A stretch of 64,000 nt of DNA. Source: an uncultured delta proteobacterium (lineage in GTDB: Bacteria; Desulfobacterota; Desulfomonilia; Desulfomonilales; Desulfomonilaceae). Numbering within the stretch: the first letter of the stretch is position 1; every line of letters begins with the position of its first letter. This document shows positions 12,317 through 19,600 of this stretch, one piece after another. The stretch is from positions 1,184,001 through 1,248,000 of the forward strand of contig CAWBKB010000001.1 in the NCBI GenBank assembly GCA_963789265.1, written 5' to 3'. The translations under genes and the position numbers were made by a program. Below the pieces are notes generated by a model, which did no database searches, had not been told where the DNA came from, and worked only from the letters and a program-made list of their open reading frames with translations.

Positions 12317-15300
12317 ATGCTCTATTTCGCGGATCTTCATGTCCATTCCAAATACTCGCGAGCTACCTCCAAGGATTGCAATCTCATGGAACTGGCCAAA
12401 TGGGCGGCTCTTAAAGGAATCCGAGTCCTGGCCACAGGGGATTTCACTCACCCCGAATGGAGCCGGGAAATTCGCGAAATGCTGACCGAAGGCGAAAGGG
12501 GTTTATTACGTCTGAAGAAGGATCATCTTCCAAAGGTCATTGTCGTCCCCGACGGTTTTGGACCGGAGGACGTGCGCTTCATCCTAAATGTTGAAATAAG
12601 CTCCATTTACAAAAAACACGGAGCTACGAGAAAGGTACACAATCTCGTTTTTATGCCTGACCTGAACGCAATGGAGCGCTTCAACGCCAGGCTCGAGCGC
12701 ATTGGAAACATCAAGTCCGACGGCAGACCGATTCTCGGCCTGGACAGCAGGGATCTTCTCGAAATCGCTCTCGAAATCACGCCTGAATCTTTTCTTATCC
12801 CGGCGCACGTCTGGACTCCTTGGTTCTCGATGCTTGGATCTAAGTCCGGATTCAACTCCGTGGAAGAATGCTTCGACGACCTTTCCTCTCACATATTTGC
12901 ACTCGAAACCGGTCTCTCGTCAGATCCGGCAATGAATCACATGGTAAGTTCGCTGGACAAATACACCCTAATATCGAACTCGGATACGCATTCTCCTGCC
13001 AGGCTCGGTCGTGAAGCCAATATCTTTTCGGGAGATCCCGGATATGTTGCCATTCGCGAGGCCATACGCGAGGGCGGACGGGCGCTATCAGGCGGACCGG
13101 CGAGTAAAGGGGCTCTTGAACGTTATGATGTTTCGGACTGGACTGCGAAAGCAGAGGCAATATCAGGGGACTGCTTTATCGGCACAATAGAATTCTTTCC
13201 GGAGGAAGGGAAATACCACCTCGACGGACATAGGAAGTGCTCTGCCCGTTTGAGCCCGGAAGAAACTGAAAGGCTGAAGGGTCATTGTCCCGTGTGCGGA
13301 CGGCCGGTGACTGTAGGGGTCGTGAACCGCGTAAATGAACTCTCCGATCGGCCGGCGGGGTCGGCCCCGGAAGGCGCCACTCCATTCTGGAGAATGCTGC
13401 CGCTGGTAGAGATCATAGGTCAGGCCCTGGACGTGGGCCCCCAATCCAAGAAGGTCGGTGCCAGCTATGATGATCTTCTCCGGAAATTGGGACCGGAATT
13501 GATGATCCTATGGTCACACCCTCTGGAACAGATCGGCCGCCATGCGCCTGAAATAGTAGTCGAGGCAATACGCAGGGTCCGCAAGGGAGAGGTGTCGATC
13601 AAAGCTGGTTACGATGGTGAGTACGGCTCGGTTCAACTCTTTGGGCCGGGTGAACGCGAGCATTTTGGCGGACAGCAGGCTTTGGTTCCGGTTCATAAAC
13701 TTGAGGTGACCAGGCGTAGAAATGATGGATCCAAACTCGTGCGAAAAAAAAAAGCCGGCAACCAGTCTCAAATGATCCCTCCGGAAAAAAAAGATCGACC
13801 GCTGAATGAAGAGCAGCAGCAGGCCATAGAGACTATTGACCTGCCGGTCCTGGTCCAGGCTGGGCCAGGCACCGGAAAGACCAGGACTTTAACACACCGC
13901 ATCGCAAGCCTTATCAAAAGCGGGCGAGTCCGTCCGGAGAAGATCACCGCCGTAACATTCACCCGCAAGGCGGCCGCAGAAATGCGGCAGCGCCTCGGGG
14001 ATTTGCTTTCGCAGGAGTGCCTTCAGGGATGCTGGGTGGGGACATTCCACCAACTTGGAGCCCGGATTCTGGACTTCTGTAAGGAAAAGACCGGACTTGA
14101 CCGCAGAGAGCGGATACTGGGCGAGGACGAGGCTTTGACCATATTCAGGCAGGCCGTCAAGTCTACGGGTTTGGATCTGGCCCCTGCGCAGGTTCCTCCG
14201 CTTTTCAAGGAAGTGAGCCTCCTCAAACAGTCAACCGTGGATTCCTCGGATGCAAATGTCAATTCCGCGGTTCGACGGGCCTACGTTGCGTACCGAGGAG
14301 CAACTGAAAAGTGCAGGAGCCTATGACCTCGACGATCTTCTTGTCGTGCCGGTCCGACTCCTACGCGATCGCCCTTCTGCGGCCGTCGAACTAAGAGAAG
14401 CCATTGCCGAACACCTACTGGTGGATGAATTTCAAGATGTTAATAGAGCCCAGTACGAGATGGTCCGCCTGCTGGCGAGCCCGGTTGGGGAGGGACTATT
14501 TGTTATAGGCGACCCCGAACAGGCCATTTACGGCTTTCGCGGTTCGGACAGAAGATTCTTTCTTCGATTCGCTGAGGATTACCCGTCAGTGCATCAAGTA
14601 AGGCTGGCCAGGAATTATCGATCACAGGCGCCGATTCTCAAGGGGGCCTCGGATGTTCTTAATGGTGGACGGAGCGGGAACCTCCTCAAAGCCGAAAGAG
14701 CCGGAGCCAATCCCATCAAGATCGTTCAGATGCCTAATTCGGCTACGGAAGGAGAATTCATTGTTCGCACCATCGACGCGGCAATGGGCGGCGCGTCGTT
14801 CTTTTCTCTTGATTCCGGACAACTAACGCTTCAGGAGCGAGACCTCGGATTCAGGGATTTCGCGGTGCTATTCCGACTGAATGCGGTAGGGGATGCTATG
14901 GAAGAGGCCTTCAAGTCTTCAGGAATTCCGTACCAGCGAGCACGCAGAACCAGTCCGGCAGAGGAGGCCGAAGCACTGGATCCGCGTGCTGAAGCGGTCA
15001 CCTTGATGACAATTCATGCTTCCAAGGGCCTGGAGTTTCCGATAGTATTCATAGCCGGATGCGAAGAAGGCATAATTCCTTACGATCCGCCGGGTGGATC
15101 CGATCGCCGCCCGCCTGACGCGGATGAAGAATGTCGGCTTCTGTATGTCGCCATGACCAGAGCAGAAGATGAACTGTTCATAACGAGGGCGCGAAACAGA
15201 TTCGTTTACGGCCTCAAGGTCGAGAAACCCTCGATCCAGTTTTCTGAAGGCAATCGACCCTTCGATTTGCGAGTTCGTAGACCCGTTGGGCGGCCGACGT

Positions 15301-15336
15301 CGGCCGCGGTCCATTCAGTATGAGCTGTTCAAATGA
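12317..15336 (+). CDS. Endonuclease Q (PHP-like) - UvrD/Rep helicase fusion; frameshifts near 14293 and ~15232, probably artefactual
   Basis: ADLHVHSKYSRATS, PAHVWTPW, NSDTHS, GKYHLDGHRKC; AGPGTGKT, VDEFQD, GDPEQAIYGFRG, TIHASKGLEF, LYVAMTRA; reconstructed end QYELFK-stop. Confidence 0.85.
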
Positions 15337-15363
15337 GCGGAAGGGAGAATGCCCTCCTTGGGG

Positions 15364-15614
15364 GTAAGCATTCAGTTTTCAGCAAGAAAGTGTCATTAAA
15401 CCCGTGGGTCAGGCTTTCCGAAACTGTCTCAAAACCCCCTGAACAGGACGAAATCGTAACACGAAATGCCCTCACCCCAACCCTCTCCCTCTGGGAGAGG
15501 GTTGGGGTGAGGGCAACAACTATGCGAATGAGGCCCAATAGTGCCACGATTTTGGGCATCAAAATAGTTTTGAGACACTTTCGGAAAGCCTGCCCCACAT
15601 GAATGAACGCTTGC
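15364..15614. mobile_element. MITE family 1 copy containing a REP interrupted by a MITE family 2 copy (15420..15582)
   Basis: Outer GTAAGCATTCAG/TGAACGCTTGC; inner GAAACTGTCTCAAAA/TTTTGAGACACTTTC between GGCTTTCC and GGAAAGCC. Confidence 0.7.
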
Positions 15615-15631
15615 ATTTGGGTAAAAGGCTC

Positions 15632-15665
15632 TTGACAAAAAGAGGATATTCAGATATTTAAATAT
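15632..15665 (+). promoter_or_regulatory. Sigma70 -35 (TTGACA) with an imperfect palindromic operator ATATTCAGAT|ATTTAAATAT, probably for ArsR
   Basis: TTGACA at 15632; 20-bp palindrome at 15646..15665 (8/10) over the -10 region; arsR lies downstream in the same orientation. Confidence 0.55.
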
Positions 15666-15674
15666 AAAAGGAGA

Positions 15675-16448
15675 ATGACTGTGCCTGGAGGGAAATTGCT
15701 GCTCTTCACTGATAATCGTGTCATTTCGGTGAGCTTGATAATCATTGTGGTCTTAATCGGACTTTTCGGTGGCTCCTATTCGGCCGGTGCAGCCGGAGCC
15801 CCGGAAGGAGCTGCATTCCAGGTTCTTAGGAATCCTCCGCTAGCCGGCGATCTCAAGATGGCCATGTTGGACGGCAGGATCGGCAGTCTGTCCGGTTTTA
15901 GAGGAAAGGTGGTCATTCTGAATTTCTGGAGAAACAAGTGCCACTACTGTGCCATGGAAAAAGGGTTCCTGAAAGACATGCTGGGATCCATGAATACGAA
16001 TGATCTTAAGGTCGTTTGCGCCGACTTTTGGGACCCGCCTTCCTGGGTCAGGGCTTACGGCAAGTCCGGCACGGGGGGTCTGATTATTACCTCCGGCCCG
16101 GCGGGACGGCAGGCGGTCATGCAAAACGTGGTCAGGGGACGTCTCATGGGTTATTACATTGTCAATGAGCAAAATGAGGCGATTTACGAGATAAAAGGCT
16201 TTCCATCAAGCTATGTCATCAATAAAGAAGGACAGGTCGTCGCGGTGCATCTGGGATTGGCTCGTTGGAACAGCCCTCCGGTTCGGAAGTGGCTCGCGGC
16301 TCTTGTGGGAACGAAACGGCCCGGGAAAGCCGGCGACTCGGAATATGAACCGCCAGGCTGGCTTGACCGCCTCCTGACCAACCCGATTAGCAGAAGCCTG
16401 CCGGTTTATGGTCCGAGTAAGACCGCGCGGGCCACTGTGAGTCATTAG
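15675..16448 (+). CDS. TlpA/redoxin family thiol-disulfide oxidoreductase
   Basis: RGKVVILNFWRNKCHYC, GFPSSYVINKEG; N-terminal membrane anchor. Confidence 0.85.
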   Translation: MTVPGGKLLLFTDNRVISVSLIIIVVLIGLFGGSYSAGAAGAPEGAAFQVLRNPPLAGDLKMAMLDGRIGSLSGFRGKVVILNFWRNKCHYCAMEKGFLKDMLGSMNTNDLKVVCADFWDPPSWVRAYGKSGTGGLIITSGPAGRQAVMQNVVRGRLMGYYIVNEQNEAIYEIKGFPSSYVINKEGQVVAVHLGLARWNSPPVRKWLAALVGTKRPGKAGDSEYEPPGWLDRLLTNPISRSLPVYGPSKTARATVSH

Positions 16449-16501
16449 CCGGTGGCTCTGGACGAAAAGAGATCCGGCAGCTCGAAGTTAGTGAGGAACA
16501 C

Positions 16502-16642
16502 ATGGACCTATGGCTTTTGATAGCGATGTTGGTAGGGTGGTTCGCATTGAACAAATGGGTACTACCTCGCTTTGGGGTTTCCACATGAATGTCCCAGGAA
16601 TGTTCATCCGGGGACCGGGTGAAGGAAAAAGCAAAAGAGTAA
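16502..16642 (+). CDS. Candidate 46-aa single-TM selenoprotein (UxxxxC), absent from the ORF track
   Basis: GAGGA RBS; MDLWLLIAMLVGWFALNKWVLPRFGVST-TGA(16586)-MSQECSSGDRVKEKAKE-TAA; hairpin 16591..16615 right after the UGA. Confidence 0.6.
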
Positions 16643-16683
16643 AGCTCGAAGAAGTTGCAACTTTTTGATCGAAGGTGGGACCA

Positions 16684-17043
16684 ATGAACCTCTCAGCAGA
16701 AACGGCAAGAGAGAACGAACATGACCTCGATGAACTTTTCCGGGAGATCAAGACGAAGGAGTTCTCCAGGGAAGCTGAAATTCTTAAGGCGCTTGGGCAT
16801 CCAATCAGGTTGAAGATTGTGTATGGTTTACTCAAAGTGGGGGGATGCAACGTCAAGCACATGCAGGAGTGCTTGGGACTGCACCAGGCTACTGTGTCAC
16901 AACACCTGATTCATCTCAAAAGCCGCGGCATTATCACATCTACCCGCCAGGGCCTTGAAATGGTGTACAGAGTCACTGACCCGTGGGCCAAGTGCATTAT
17001 CGACAATATCGAAAAGAAACTAAGAGAAGAAGAGGGCGATTAG
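16684..17043 (+). CDS. ArsR/SmtB family transcriptional regulator
   Basis: LKALGHPIRLKIV...QATVSQHL..LKSRGII...R.G..MVYRV. Confidence 0.9.
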   Translation: MNLSAETARENEHDLDELFREIKTKEFSREAEILKALGHPIRLKIVYGLLKVGGCNVKHMQECLGLHQATVSQHLIHLKSRGIITSTRQGLEMVYRVTDPWAKCIIDNIEKKLREEEGD

Positions 17044-17234
17044 GCGCGGCTTCCTCCTGTACTTGCTTGACCTTCCTTAAGGGCCTACCACAGGCTTGGC
17101 CTTTTTGTGCTCGACGATACCTCCAACCATTTCTTACTCTCGCAATCGGCTCTCGGTGGTGTATACTATATTTTTAGCATCCTATGCACACGATGTTCGC
17201 GAATTCGTCTGCCAATTGTGAGAGGGGTGACCAG

Positions 17235-17655
17235 ATGGCTGATCTCGTGAGATTCGGGGTATCCATCCCTGACGATCTGCTGGAGAAGTTCGACATCCTC
17301 ATCGCGGAACAAGGCTATACTAACCGGTCCGAGGCTATCAGAGATCTCATACGGAATCGCTTTGTCGAGGACGAGTGGAGCCGCTCGGAAGAGGACGTCG
17401 TCGGCACTGTGACAGTCGTCTATAACCACGAACAGAGCGATCTGGCCCAGAAGCTAACCGAAATCCAGCACAGAAAGCACGATCTCATCATTTCCTCGGT
17501 TCACGTGCATCTGGATAAGCATAATTGCCTGGAAGGTACTTATTATGAGGGGAGCGCCCGCTGAGGTGAAAAAGGCAGGGGAGCTTCTCATCTCCACTCG
17601 CGGTGTGAAGCACGGCAAAATCACTATGACCACCACCGGAAAAGAATTGGATTAG
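17235..17655 (+). CDS. nikR: Nickel-responsive regulator NikR (single extra G near 17536)
   Basis: VRFGVS...[11 protein letters not shown]...[11 protein letters not shown]; continues VLIMRG...GVKHGK in the shifted frame. Confidence 0.88.
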
Positions 17656-17672: not shown

Positions 17673-18258
<586 letters not shown>

Positions 18259-18295
18259 GGTGCGGTCACTGAGTCCGCCGGCGCAGACAGTCGAT

Positions 18296-18324
18296 TTGAC
18301 GTCAAGACGTTTAAACGTTATATT
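18296..18324 (+). promoter_or_regulatory. Sigma70 promoter TTGACG-N17-TATATT with three ACGT-core boxes; probably leaderless
   Basis: GACGTC-AA-GACGTT-TA-AACGTT; ATG is 7 nt after the -10 and has no SD. Confidence 0.65.
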
Positions 18325-18330
18325 AGCTGT

Positions 18331-18564
18331 ATGAAGACGTCACACAAAAGAGCCACCATCTATCTCGATCCGGATCTTCATCGGGCCCTTCGGGTGAAAG
18401 CCGTGGAGACGGACAGGACCATCTCCGATCTGGTAAACGAGGCAGTGAGGCTGAGACTTGCTGAAGATGCCGAAGACCTTGCAGCGTTTGACGACCGCGC
18501 GCGCGAACCTGACCTGCACTTCGAAGACGTTTTGAAAGATCTTAAGCGGCGTGCCAAAATATAG
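18331..18564 (+). CDS. CopG/RHH antitoxin
   Basis: KRATIYLDPDLHRALRVKA...ISDLVNEAVR..LAEDAEDL. Confidence 0.85.
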   Translation: MKTSHKRATIYLDPDLHRALRVKAVETDRTISDLVNEAVRLRLAEDAEDLAAFDDRAREPDLHFEDVLKDLKRRAKI

Positions 18565-18811
18565 CATTCTCATCAAACCGTCTGCGGTCAAAGAAATTGA
18601 GACTATTGGCACGAAAAAGGATCGTCAGCGCATCGTTGCTCAGATAAGAAAACTCGGCTACGATCCGCGTCCGTGTGGATGCGAAAAGCTGTCCGGCCAT
18701 GATAAGTACCGCATCCGGCAAGGGCGCTTTAGAATTGTCTATTCAATTGAAGATCGGGAATTGGCGGTCTACGTGGTCAAGGTTGGGCACCGGAGAGAAG
18801 TGTACCGGTAG
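18551..18811 (+). CDS. relE: RelE/ParE family toxin
   Basis: DPRPCGCEKLSGHDKYRIRQGRFRIVYSI...VVKVGHRREVYR. Confidence 0.9.
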   Translation: MPKYSILIKPSAVKEIETIGTKKDRQRIVAQIRKLGYDPRPCGCEKLSGHDKYRIRQGRFRIVYSIEDRELAVYVVKVGHRREVYR

Positions 18812-19338: not shown

Positions 19339-19600
19339 GAGACTGTCTCAAAAGTGCGGATCGAGTCGAGACCGTGACACGAAAGTCGCTAGAGTTCTGG
19401 TTCCCAATCCCGTGTGTCGCGGGACTGGGAACCAGAAAACTTTGGTGTGCATTTCGTTGCCCTCACCCCAACCCTCTCCCAGAGGGAGAGGGAGCCATTC
19501 CAGAGTGGCTATTAGAGTCACCTCGCCCTTTGGGAGAGGGTCAGGGTGAGGGGATTACGTGTTACGATGTCCTCCCGTTCAAGAGTTTTGCAACAGTTTC
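19339..19600. mobile_element. MITE family 2 inserted into a REP palindrome
   Basis: GAGACTGTCTCAAAA...TTTTGCAACAGTTTC; 4-bp duplication CACA; internal CCCTCACCC...GGGTGAGGG palindromes. Confidence 0.8.

Follow-up and report, generated by a model that had tools for sequence, protein, structure and literature searches.

The window analysed here is a 64,000-nucleotide (nt) stretch of the genome of an uncultured delta proteobacterium (Desulfobacterota; Desulfomonilaceae; GCA_963789265.1, CAWBKB010000001.1, 1,184,001–1,248,000), and all coordinates are window positions. On the + strand of segment 15632–17043, a small gene of 46 codons with an in-frame TGA lies between a gene for a TlpA-like protein (tlpA) and an arsR gene, downstream of a palindromic box. 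Judged from its sequence and that of its homologues, the small gene almost certainly encodes a selenoprotein, with selenocysteine (Sec) at the TGA. The features of the segment are as follows, with counts taken from the homologous loci described below.

15632–15637, +: TTGACA, a −35-like hexamer (at 33 of 34 surveyed host-family loci TTGAC precedes the box by about 8 nt; the 34th locus is too short)
15646–15665, +: imperfect palindrome, 8/10 pairs, conserved in host-family loci; predicted ArsR operator
15675–16448, +: gene for a TlpA-like thioredoxin-fold protein with CHYC at 15939–15950 and a predicted export signal (AhpC-TSA, 30.9 bits, above cut-off)
16493–16497, +: ribosome-binding site GAGGA, assigned from sequence (a Shine-Dalgarno-like word precedes the start in 49/55 homologues)
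16502–16642, +: predicted micro-selenoprotein gene, 46 amino acids (aa), single helix; W13, P22, G25, T28 and U29 invariant, C34 nearly so
16586–16588, +: TGA, predicted Sec codon (codon 29, U29); TGA in 55/55 loci from the protein search
16601–16603, +: Cys34 codon, five codons past the UGA; Cys at +5 in 53/55 loci
16603–16623, +: predicted bacterial selenocysteine insertion sequence (SECIS) hairpin with a 9-bp stem and loop GGA at 16612–16614, 23 nt past the UGA; identified by covariation and model fit
16684–17043, +: gene for an ArsR/SmtB-family regulator with conserved C55 and C63, predicted operon repressor (NF033788, 74.2 bits, cut-off 55)
17081–17097, +: terminator-like hairpin after arsR, weak (4 such sites found versus 2.3 expected by chance)

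The small gene and its in-frame TGA

A sequence-only reading of this DNA had assigned to the 16502–16642 open reading frame (ORF) a GAGGA ribosome-binding site, an in-frame TGA at 16586, a Cys codon at position 34, a TAA end and one helix, and all of these were confirmed. The gene is single-copy in the host genome, and its peptide has matches in 55 of the 61 genomes of a close-relative sample (the host's own included), with each of the 56 matches holding exactly one TGA. Homologues stopping at codon 29 with TAA or TAG, which the sequence-only reading had looked to as contrary evidence, were found at none of the 55 loci, nor at the 19 readable loci of a further 20 (matches ending before the codon, or genomes without selA); all 19 have TGA and the remaining codon was unread. 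Conservation continues past the UGA. The Cys at +5 is encoded by TGC at 36 loci and by TGT at 17, with the other two loci having Cys at +6, and Ser at +2 (50/55 loci) is encoded by TCN at 34 and by AGY at 16. As both Cys codons and both Ser codon families are used, selection acts on the protein past the UGA.

A profile built from 46 of the 55 extracted loci (alignment A1, near-duplicates left out) matched 137 of the 301 genomes in a sample of the phylum and returned 1,284 matches against 1.84 billion representatives. Among the best 150 of these matches, position 29 is Cys in 121, Trp in nine and another residue in five, with 15 ending at Thr28; because truncation lowers the score, Cys forms are over-represented in this list, and the nine Trp are probably TGA translated under another code. 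Cys homologues of the kind that the sequence-only reading had proposed to look for were recovered, many of them carrying additional tail cysteines, and the Sec alignment could be aligned to a mostly-Cys alignment with an hhalign probability of 99.9. A pattern scan of GTDB gave at least 120 stretches, of which 80 were fetched (70 TGA and 10 TGC or TGT forms); the pattern is blind to TAA, TAG and TGG and was not counted as evidence on stop codons. By record title, the GTDB carriers belong to the Planctomycetota, Acidobacteriota, Deltaproteobacteria, Verrucomicrobia, Obscuribacterales, Spirochaetes, Rokubacteria, Deferribacteres and Fibrobacteraceae. The 70 TGA genes from GTDB and the 55 from the close relatives overlap slightly.

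The Sec machinery follows the codon. The genes selA, selB, selD and tRNA-Sec (selC) were all found in the host genome above their cut-offs; the host selD gene itself holds one TGA. For 50 of the 80 fetched GTDB genomes, all 40 with the TGA form have selA (n = 36) or selB (n = 38), compared to two of the ten with the Cys form. Within the phylum, selA occurs in 129 of the 137 carriers and the other eight have selB and tRNA-Sec, though as selA is near-universal in this sample (279/301 genomes) it serves as a consistency check only. Separately, three genomes (G068, G178 and G196) each have two selB-like genes, one of which adjoins an additional, weaker match to the tRNA-Sec family, and gave no match to selA; the extra genes possibly belong to tRNA-Sec-like systems inserting other residues.

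The bacterial SECIS (bSECIS) model, as given in the available text of PMC13188914, places the loop 16–37 nt past the UGA with a G within the first two loop positions, and the hairpin at 16603–16623 (−11.4 kcal/mol) conforms to it. Across 48 of the 55 loci (near-duplicates and two loci with an extra codon left out), this hairpin is 69.2% paired with 87 two-sided changes (0/500 shuffles as high), it outscores every slid register, and four of its pairs emerge independently from RNAalifold. It is the minimum-energy fold in two short windows; single-sequence folding z-scores are not significant (−0.62 and −1.16), and the minimum-energy fold of a 91-nt context differs, burying the UGA. Relatedness inflates covariation counts, so the contrast between TGA and Cys genes is the better test. 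Under the published loop rules and a threshold of −5 kcal/mol or better, a conforming hairpin was found in 47/55 and 56/70 of the TGA genes versus 1/10 of the Cys genes, with synonymously recoded controls conforming in means of 6.8/55 and 9.4/70 (about 12–13%). The SECIS had initially been placed at 16591–16615. The letters of that hairpin are present, but its pairing in the same 48 homologues (50.8%) is at the level of shuffles (149/500 as high), and its loop begins 11 nt past the UGA with G third in the loop, outside the bSECIS model of PMC13188914; on both counts it was rejected. An Rfam scan gave no match at gathering score, only chance matches to a repeat hairpin at 15461–15521 and one weak long non-coding RNA match. 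Overall, the conservation of the TGA, the Cys homologues, the machinery and the SECIS contrast strongly support the sequence-only reading in its central claim of a single-helix U-x4-C selenoprotein of about 46 aa.

Operon, box and membrane topology

The palindrome noted at 15646–15665 is present, with 8 of 10 positions paired, though an 8/10-pair palindrome is by itself common (0.55 per kb on contig C1). At loci without tlpA, the box immediately precedes the small gene, at −144 to −250 relative to the TGA. Positions 15648–15663 are one mismatch from the SqrR/YgaV site ATTC-N8-GAAT (available text of PMC9774250), and it is plausible, the more so given the conservation of the box in the host family, that 15646–15665 is an ArsR operator. 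A sigma-70 scan of 15300–17400 gave no canonical −35/−10 pair, and the −10 is thus taken to be non-canonical.

Gene order was compared between 31 host-family loci and 101 loci from outside the family (24 from the phylum and 77 from GTDB). In the host family, arsR adjoins the small gene at all 31 loci, nikR follows arsR at 27 and tlpA is adjacent at 26; of the five loci without tlpA, one is too short and the other four keep the box and arsR. Outside the family, ArsR homologues are near the small gene at 1/24 phylum and 7/77 GTDB loci, this TlpA was detected at 0/24 and 0/77, and nikR at 0/101. The conserved core is predicted operator–small gene–arsR, to which tlpA is accessory. The naming of the regulator as ArsR is borne out by its NF033788 match. 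In this window, nikR (17235–17654) passes from frame 0 to frame 1 at about codon 100, owing to an assembly error or a frameshift, and relatives carry intact-length nikR ORFs 3′ of arsR.

An AlphaFold2 model of the small protein has one helix (residues 2–23) and a low-confidence coil tail (mean predicted local distance difference test score, 70.7). Net charge is negative at the N-terminus in 40 of 46 members, and it is +2 over the stretch that follows the helix in 41 of 46. In membrane proteins, the more positive flank of a helix tends to lie on the cytoplasmic side (the positive-inside rule). Based on this rule and the charge pattern, an N-out/C-in topology is predicted, with U29 and C34 just beneath the cytoplasmic face. 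The neighbouring TlpA was correctly described as thioredoxin-like with a CHYC motif. It has the thioredoxin-like fold, CxxC and predicted export signal of TlpA/ResA-type proteins and falls below the ResA and TlpA equivalog cut-offs, so is called TlpA-like only; among its homologues, CxxC is kept in 26/26 and a hydrophobic, export-signal-like N-terminal stretch in 25/26.

Several other features surround the segment. Upstream, a helicase-like gene at 12317–15323 appears to be split into two overlapping ORFs (12317–14326 and 14250–15323), likely by a frameshift, and a palindromic repeat element occupies 15420–15590, with a 20-bp perfect stem at 15468–15514 and inverted ends. The genome contains 33 exact copies of the 21-base core of this element, and a similar sequence is present around 19350–19550. 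Downstream of nikR, 17733–18811 holds two small gene pairs, which we take to resemble toxin-antitoxin families.

Proposed role in sulfur handling and its alternatives

The next-best box sites in the host genome lie before a PsrA/PhsA-like operon and before a gene for a HesB-like selenoprotein, where the spacing from the box to TTGAC differs. Behind the first of these boxes (L246; G000:C3:111300-118500), genes on one strand encode the PsrA/PhsA-like molybdoenzyme, an Fe-S protein, NrfD, two YeeE, a Rieske protein and a cytochrome b (ExtP-like). The molybdoenzyme scores 452.6 bits with the PhsA model, below the cut-off of 694, and its best solved match is 2vpw. The HesB-like gene (L247:175-462; G000:C1, about 2144974-2145261) has an in-frame TGA, the box upstream and an FmdB-family zinc-ribbon gene downstream, an order that recurs in L238. 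A weaker box past TTGACA (L248; G000:C1:466500-469100) precedes a 174-aa gene upstream of the SynChlorMet cassette genes scmD and scmE. Run on 37 host-family genomes, a strict box pattern matched 35, with 0 matches in a reversed control; away from the small gene, the box was found in ten other genomes, nine times before the same reductase and once before the HesB-like gene.

Neighbours across phyla were surveyed using the first 260 residues of 111 of the 116 nearest same-strand ORFs (five left out as overlaps or duplicates), with 121 ORFs from 20 arbitrary 6-kb stretches as a control. Pfam matches in a thiol/sulfur set (thioredoxin-fold, DsbD_TM, YgaP-like, TauE, DUF302, CMD, MsrA, rubrerythrin and ArsR) occurred in 19/111 adjacent ORFs compared to 1/121 control ORFs (Fisher's p = 6e-4 with the two own-family TlpAs removed and the control raised generously to 3). 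At several planctomycete loci, rhodanese and metallo-beta-lactamase genes and the small gene are followed by TauE or an RND pump, and L117, L150 and L122 are islands with rhodanese, persulfide-dioxygenase-like, TauE or RND genes. DsbD_TM/CcdA genes adjoin the small gene in L162 (trx-gene-ccdA) and L065; genes for ECF sigma factors, zf-HC2 anti-sigma factors and MerR recur beside it, and metal-transport genes (ZnuA, cation efflux) are neighbours in single cases only. Two Cys-form proteins, P0065 and P0080, are fused to a thioredoxin domain without a second export signal, and these fusions fit a cytoplasmic tail.

The explanation favoured here, to which we give about an even chance, is that the small protein is a membrane-tethered Sec29/Cys34 redox centre in reactive-sulfur handling that is recycled by thioredoxin, its chemistry being inferred. 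ArsR would repress the operon through the box, and a sulfur or oxidant signal acting on the conserved ArsR cysteines would relieve this repression, such that the small protein would be induced together with sulfur-handling genes. Sec would be inserted at U29 in a SelB-dependent manner; the selenol could then attack a persulfide, polysulfide or oxidant, Cys34 could resolve the adduct, and a cytoplasmic thioredoxin could re-reduce the Sec/Cys centre. A more specific form of this proposal is tentative and, on balance, somewhat improbable as a whole: the family would be among the commonest of the overlooked bacterial selenoprotein families, a membrane tether of about 45 residues that is SelK/SelS-like in design and that uses its Sec/Cys pair, at the cytoplasmic face, to carry or sense sulfane sulfur. 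In the host lineage it would then stand at the centre of an ArsR regulon not described before, in which a cysteine pair other than that of BigR would be the sensor and which would couple it to the polysulfide/thiosulfate reductase, YeeE transporters and the HesB-like selenoprotein.

Several observations weigh against a redox centre in sulfur handling. The ArsR is without the BigR/SqrR cysteine pair, in which a Cys of helix 2 and another close to the C-terminus join in a tetrasulfide; its helix 2 has Tyr at the position of YgaV Cys31 (motif from the available text of PMC9774250), and it scores 46.2 bits with the BigR model NF040642 versus a cut-off of 155. As it keeps C55 and C63 rather than that pair, it may work like such sensors without being one. 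The strict box pattern was partly built from the host genome's own site before the reductase, and it catches this site in only 9 of the 36 other host-family genomes. The thiol/sulfur set behind the 19/111 was picked with the data already in view, the loci are not independent of one another and spurious frames are present in both ORF sets, while the other 92 adjacent ORFs fall outside the set and the neighbourhood is variable. Each of the two fusion proteins comes from a single-contig record, and one of them has a frameshift at its end; when longer proteins were searched, P0065 alone was found again. The hydrophobic stretch of the small protein is short (best 17-residue hydropathy of 1.8 in the query). 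Lastly, a second Cys is missing within the first eight codons in 4/70 GTDB TGA genes and is displaced or absent in 9 of the 15 divergent members that were read, so that Sec alone may be the essential residue. Two Akkermansiaceae TGA forms (L103 and L140) are directly 3′ of a bacterial globin gene; the tail of the L103 protein is seven residues long and has no second Cys.

An unlikely alternative is a signalling role, in which the regulator next to the gene (ArsR in this window, ECF/anti-sigma or MerR at other loci) would be informed of sulfur, oxidant or selenium status by the redox state of the Sec/Cys pair or by how efficiently the UGA is read through. The constant adjacency of arsR in the host family, the ArsR homologues near 1/24 and 7/77 of the other loci and the recurrence of ECF sigma, zf-HC2 and MerR genes are all consistent with such a role, but most outside-family loci lack an adjacent regulator of this kind, and Cys forms in genomes without Sec machinery exclude read-through sensing as the general role.

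The sequence-only reading had the small protein acting with TlpA. Spelled out, it would be the direct redox partner of TlpA, either in the periplasm or as the adaptor of a transmembrane Trx-CcdA-TlpA relay. This is a quite unlikely role. The adjacency of tlpA at 26/31 host-family loci, its invariant CxxC and the DsbD_TM/CcdA genes of L162 and L065 speak for it, yet four long-enough host-family loci with the box and arsR have no tlpA, this TlpA was detected beside the small gene at none of the 101 outside-family loci, and the two proteins are predicted on opposite sides of the membrane. With TlpA predicted to be exported and the Sec tail predicted to be cytoplasmic, a direct partnership is doubtful, and TlpA is likely a co-regulated periplasmic passenger.

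It is decidedly unlikely that the small protein is a membrane-bound binder or chaperone of soft metals (Ni, Cu or Hg) with Sec and Cys as ligands. The nikR after arsR at 27/31 host-family loci and the extra tail cysteines of many Cys homologues would suit such a function, and the ArsR/SmtB and MerR families do include metal sensors; against this, the common box leads to the sulfur reductase operon and the HesB-like gene rather than to metal efflux, metal-transport neighbours are isolated cases and nikR was detected at none of the compared loci outside the host family. Finally, that the TGA is an ordinary stop ending a 28-aa membrane peptide, with the downstream ATG incidental or the restart of a separate peptide, is very improbable even though an ATG follows the TGA at 47/55 loci and gene callers end 15 of the best 150 matches at Thr28, as codon 29 is never TAA or TAG at the 55 loci or the 19 readable extra loci, Cys homologues join both halves, and the hairpin and Sec machinery track the TGA form.

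Catalogued relatives and known systems

No member of the family scored above a curated cut-off in Pfam or NCBIfam (0/46), with weak membrane-helix matches only (E of 0.008 or worse), and the selenoprotein models in NCBIfam matched none of the 46. An ESM Atlas search with a Cys homologue returned only an unnamed 123-member cluster at 0.87, and a tblastn search of plasmids gave one chance match (E of 0.6). Six entries in the deep-Sep supplement share the hydrophobic helix and the W-x8-P-x2-G-x2-T-U-x4-C spacing when compared by eye to the invariant positions of alignment A1, and also end in a short charged tail; the header of that file reads 'known selenoprotein sequences'. The possibility that the family was uncatalogued was rejected on this basis. 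Table S3 of Peng et al. 2016 (PMC5029168) has a row 'Unknown (Geobacter lovleyi)' with five genes and no sequence, which by its name may be the same family. The family does not appear in the 119-family table of a 2026 review (available text of PMC13188914) or among the nine 'hypothetical protein' rows of deep-Sep file 3, and no mention was found in the main text, as available, of PMC2398784, PMC9312934 and PMC13326102. A literature search, which did not extend to the family table of BSepDB and covered the families of Haft and Tolstoy 2025 through the 2026 review table and the NCBIfam scan, found no paper giving the family a function. The sequence-only reading recognised no characterised family; the family is uncharacterised, though it had already been catalogued as a predicted selenoprotein.

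Compared to those catalogues, with which it shares the helix and the W, P, G, T, U and C spacing, the family has grown from the five genes of 2016 to 137/301 genomes in one phylum and about nine other lineages by record title, and the catalogue entries, in the available texts, have no function, topology, regulon or link to Cys forms and thioredoxin. New here are the family's wide distribution, a corrected SECIS, the switch between Sec and Cys, the predicted topology and the candidate sulfur-linked ArsR regulon; the family was predicted earlier, and its function is proposed here. The family, so far listed in supplementary files alone, is present in nearly half of the sampled phylum genomes and in several other phyla, and as no Pfam or NCBIfam model covers it and gene callers cut it at the UGA, selenoproteome counts miss it. 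A micro-selenoprotein that is anchored in the membrane and has no thioredoxin fold would broaden the known uses of bacterial selenium, and the correct SECIS, the Sec/Cys switch, the predicted topology and the candidate regulon make the family testable.

Among known systems, the operon shares with the SqrR/BigR/YgaV persulfide-sensing regulons an ArsR-family regulator within the operon, a box one mismatch from ATTC-N8-GAAT and, among neighbours or predicted targets, genes for YgaP-like, rhodanese, TauE, YeeE and DUF302 proteins. It differs in that its ArsR has C55/C63 in place of the defining Cys pair and in that the predicted target is a PsrA/PhsA-like reductase. The eukaryotic SelK and SelS proteins combine a single membrane helix with a disordered tail in the cytosol that bears the Sec. 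Their size is greater, and their Sec is close to the C-terminus. In the small protein, Sec is instead six residues past the helix, and the likeness is one of design only, with homology not implied. With the thioredoxin-fold UxxC and the KCU-star/UXX-star families (Table 1 of PMC13188914, as available), the small protein has in common a UGA with an in-frame bSECIS, the interchange of Sec and Cys and a nearby Cys, whereas it is set apart from them by having no thioredoxin fold, by its U-x4-C spacing and by its membrane anchor.

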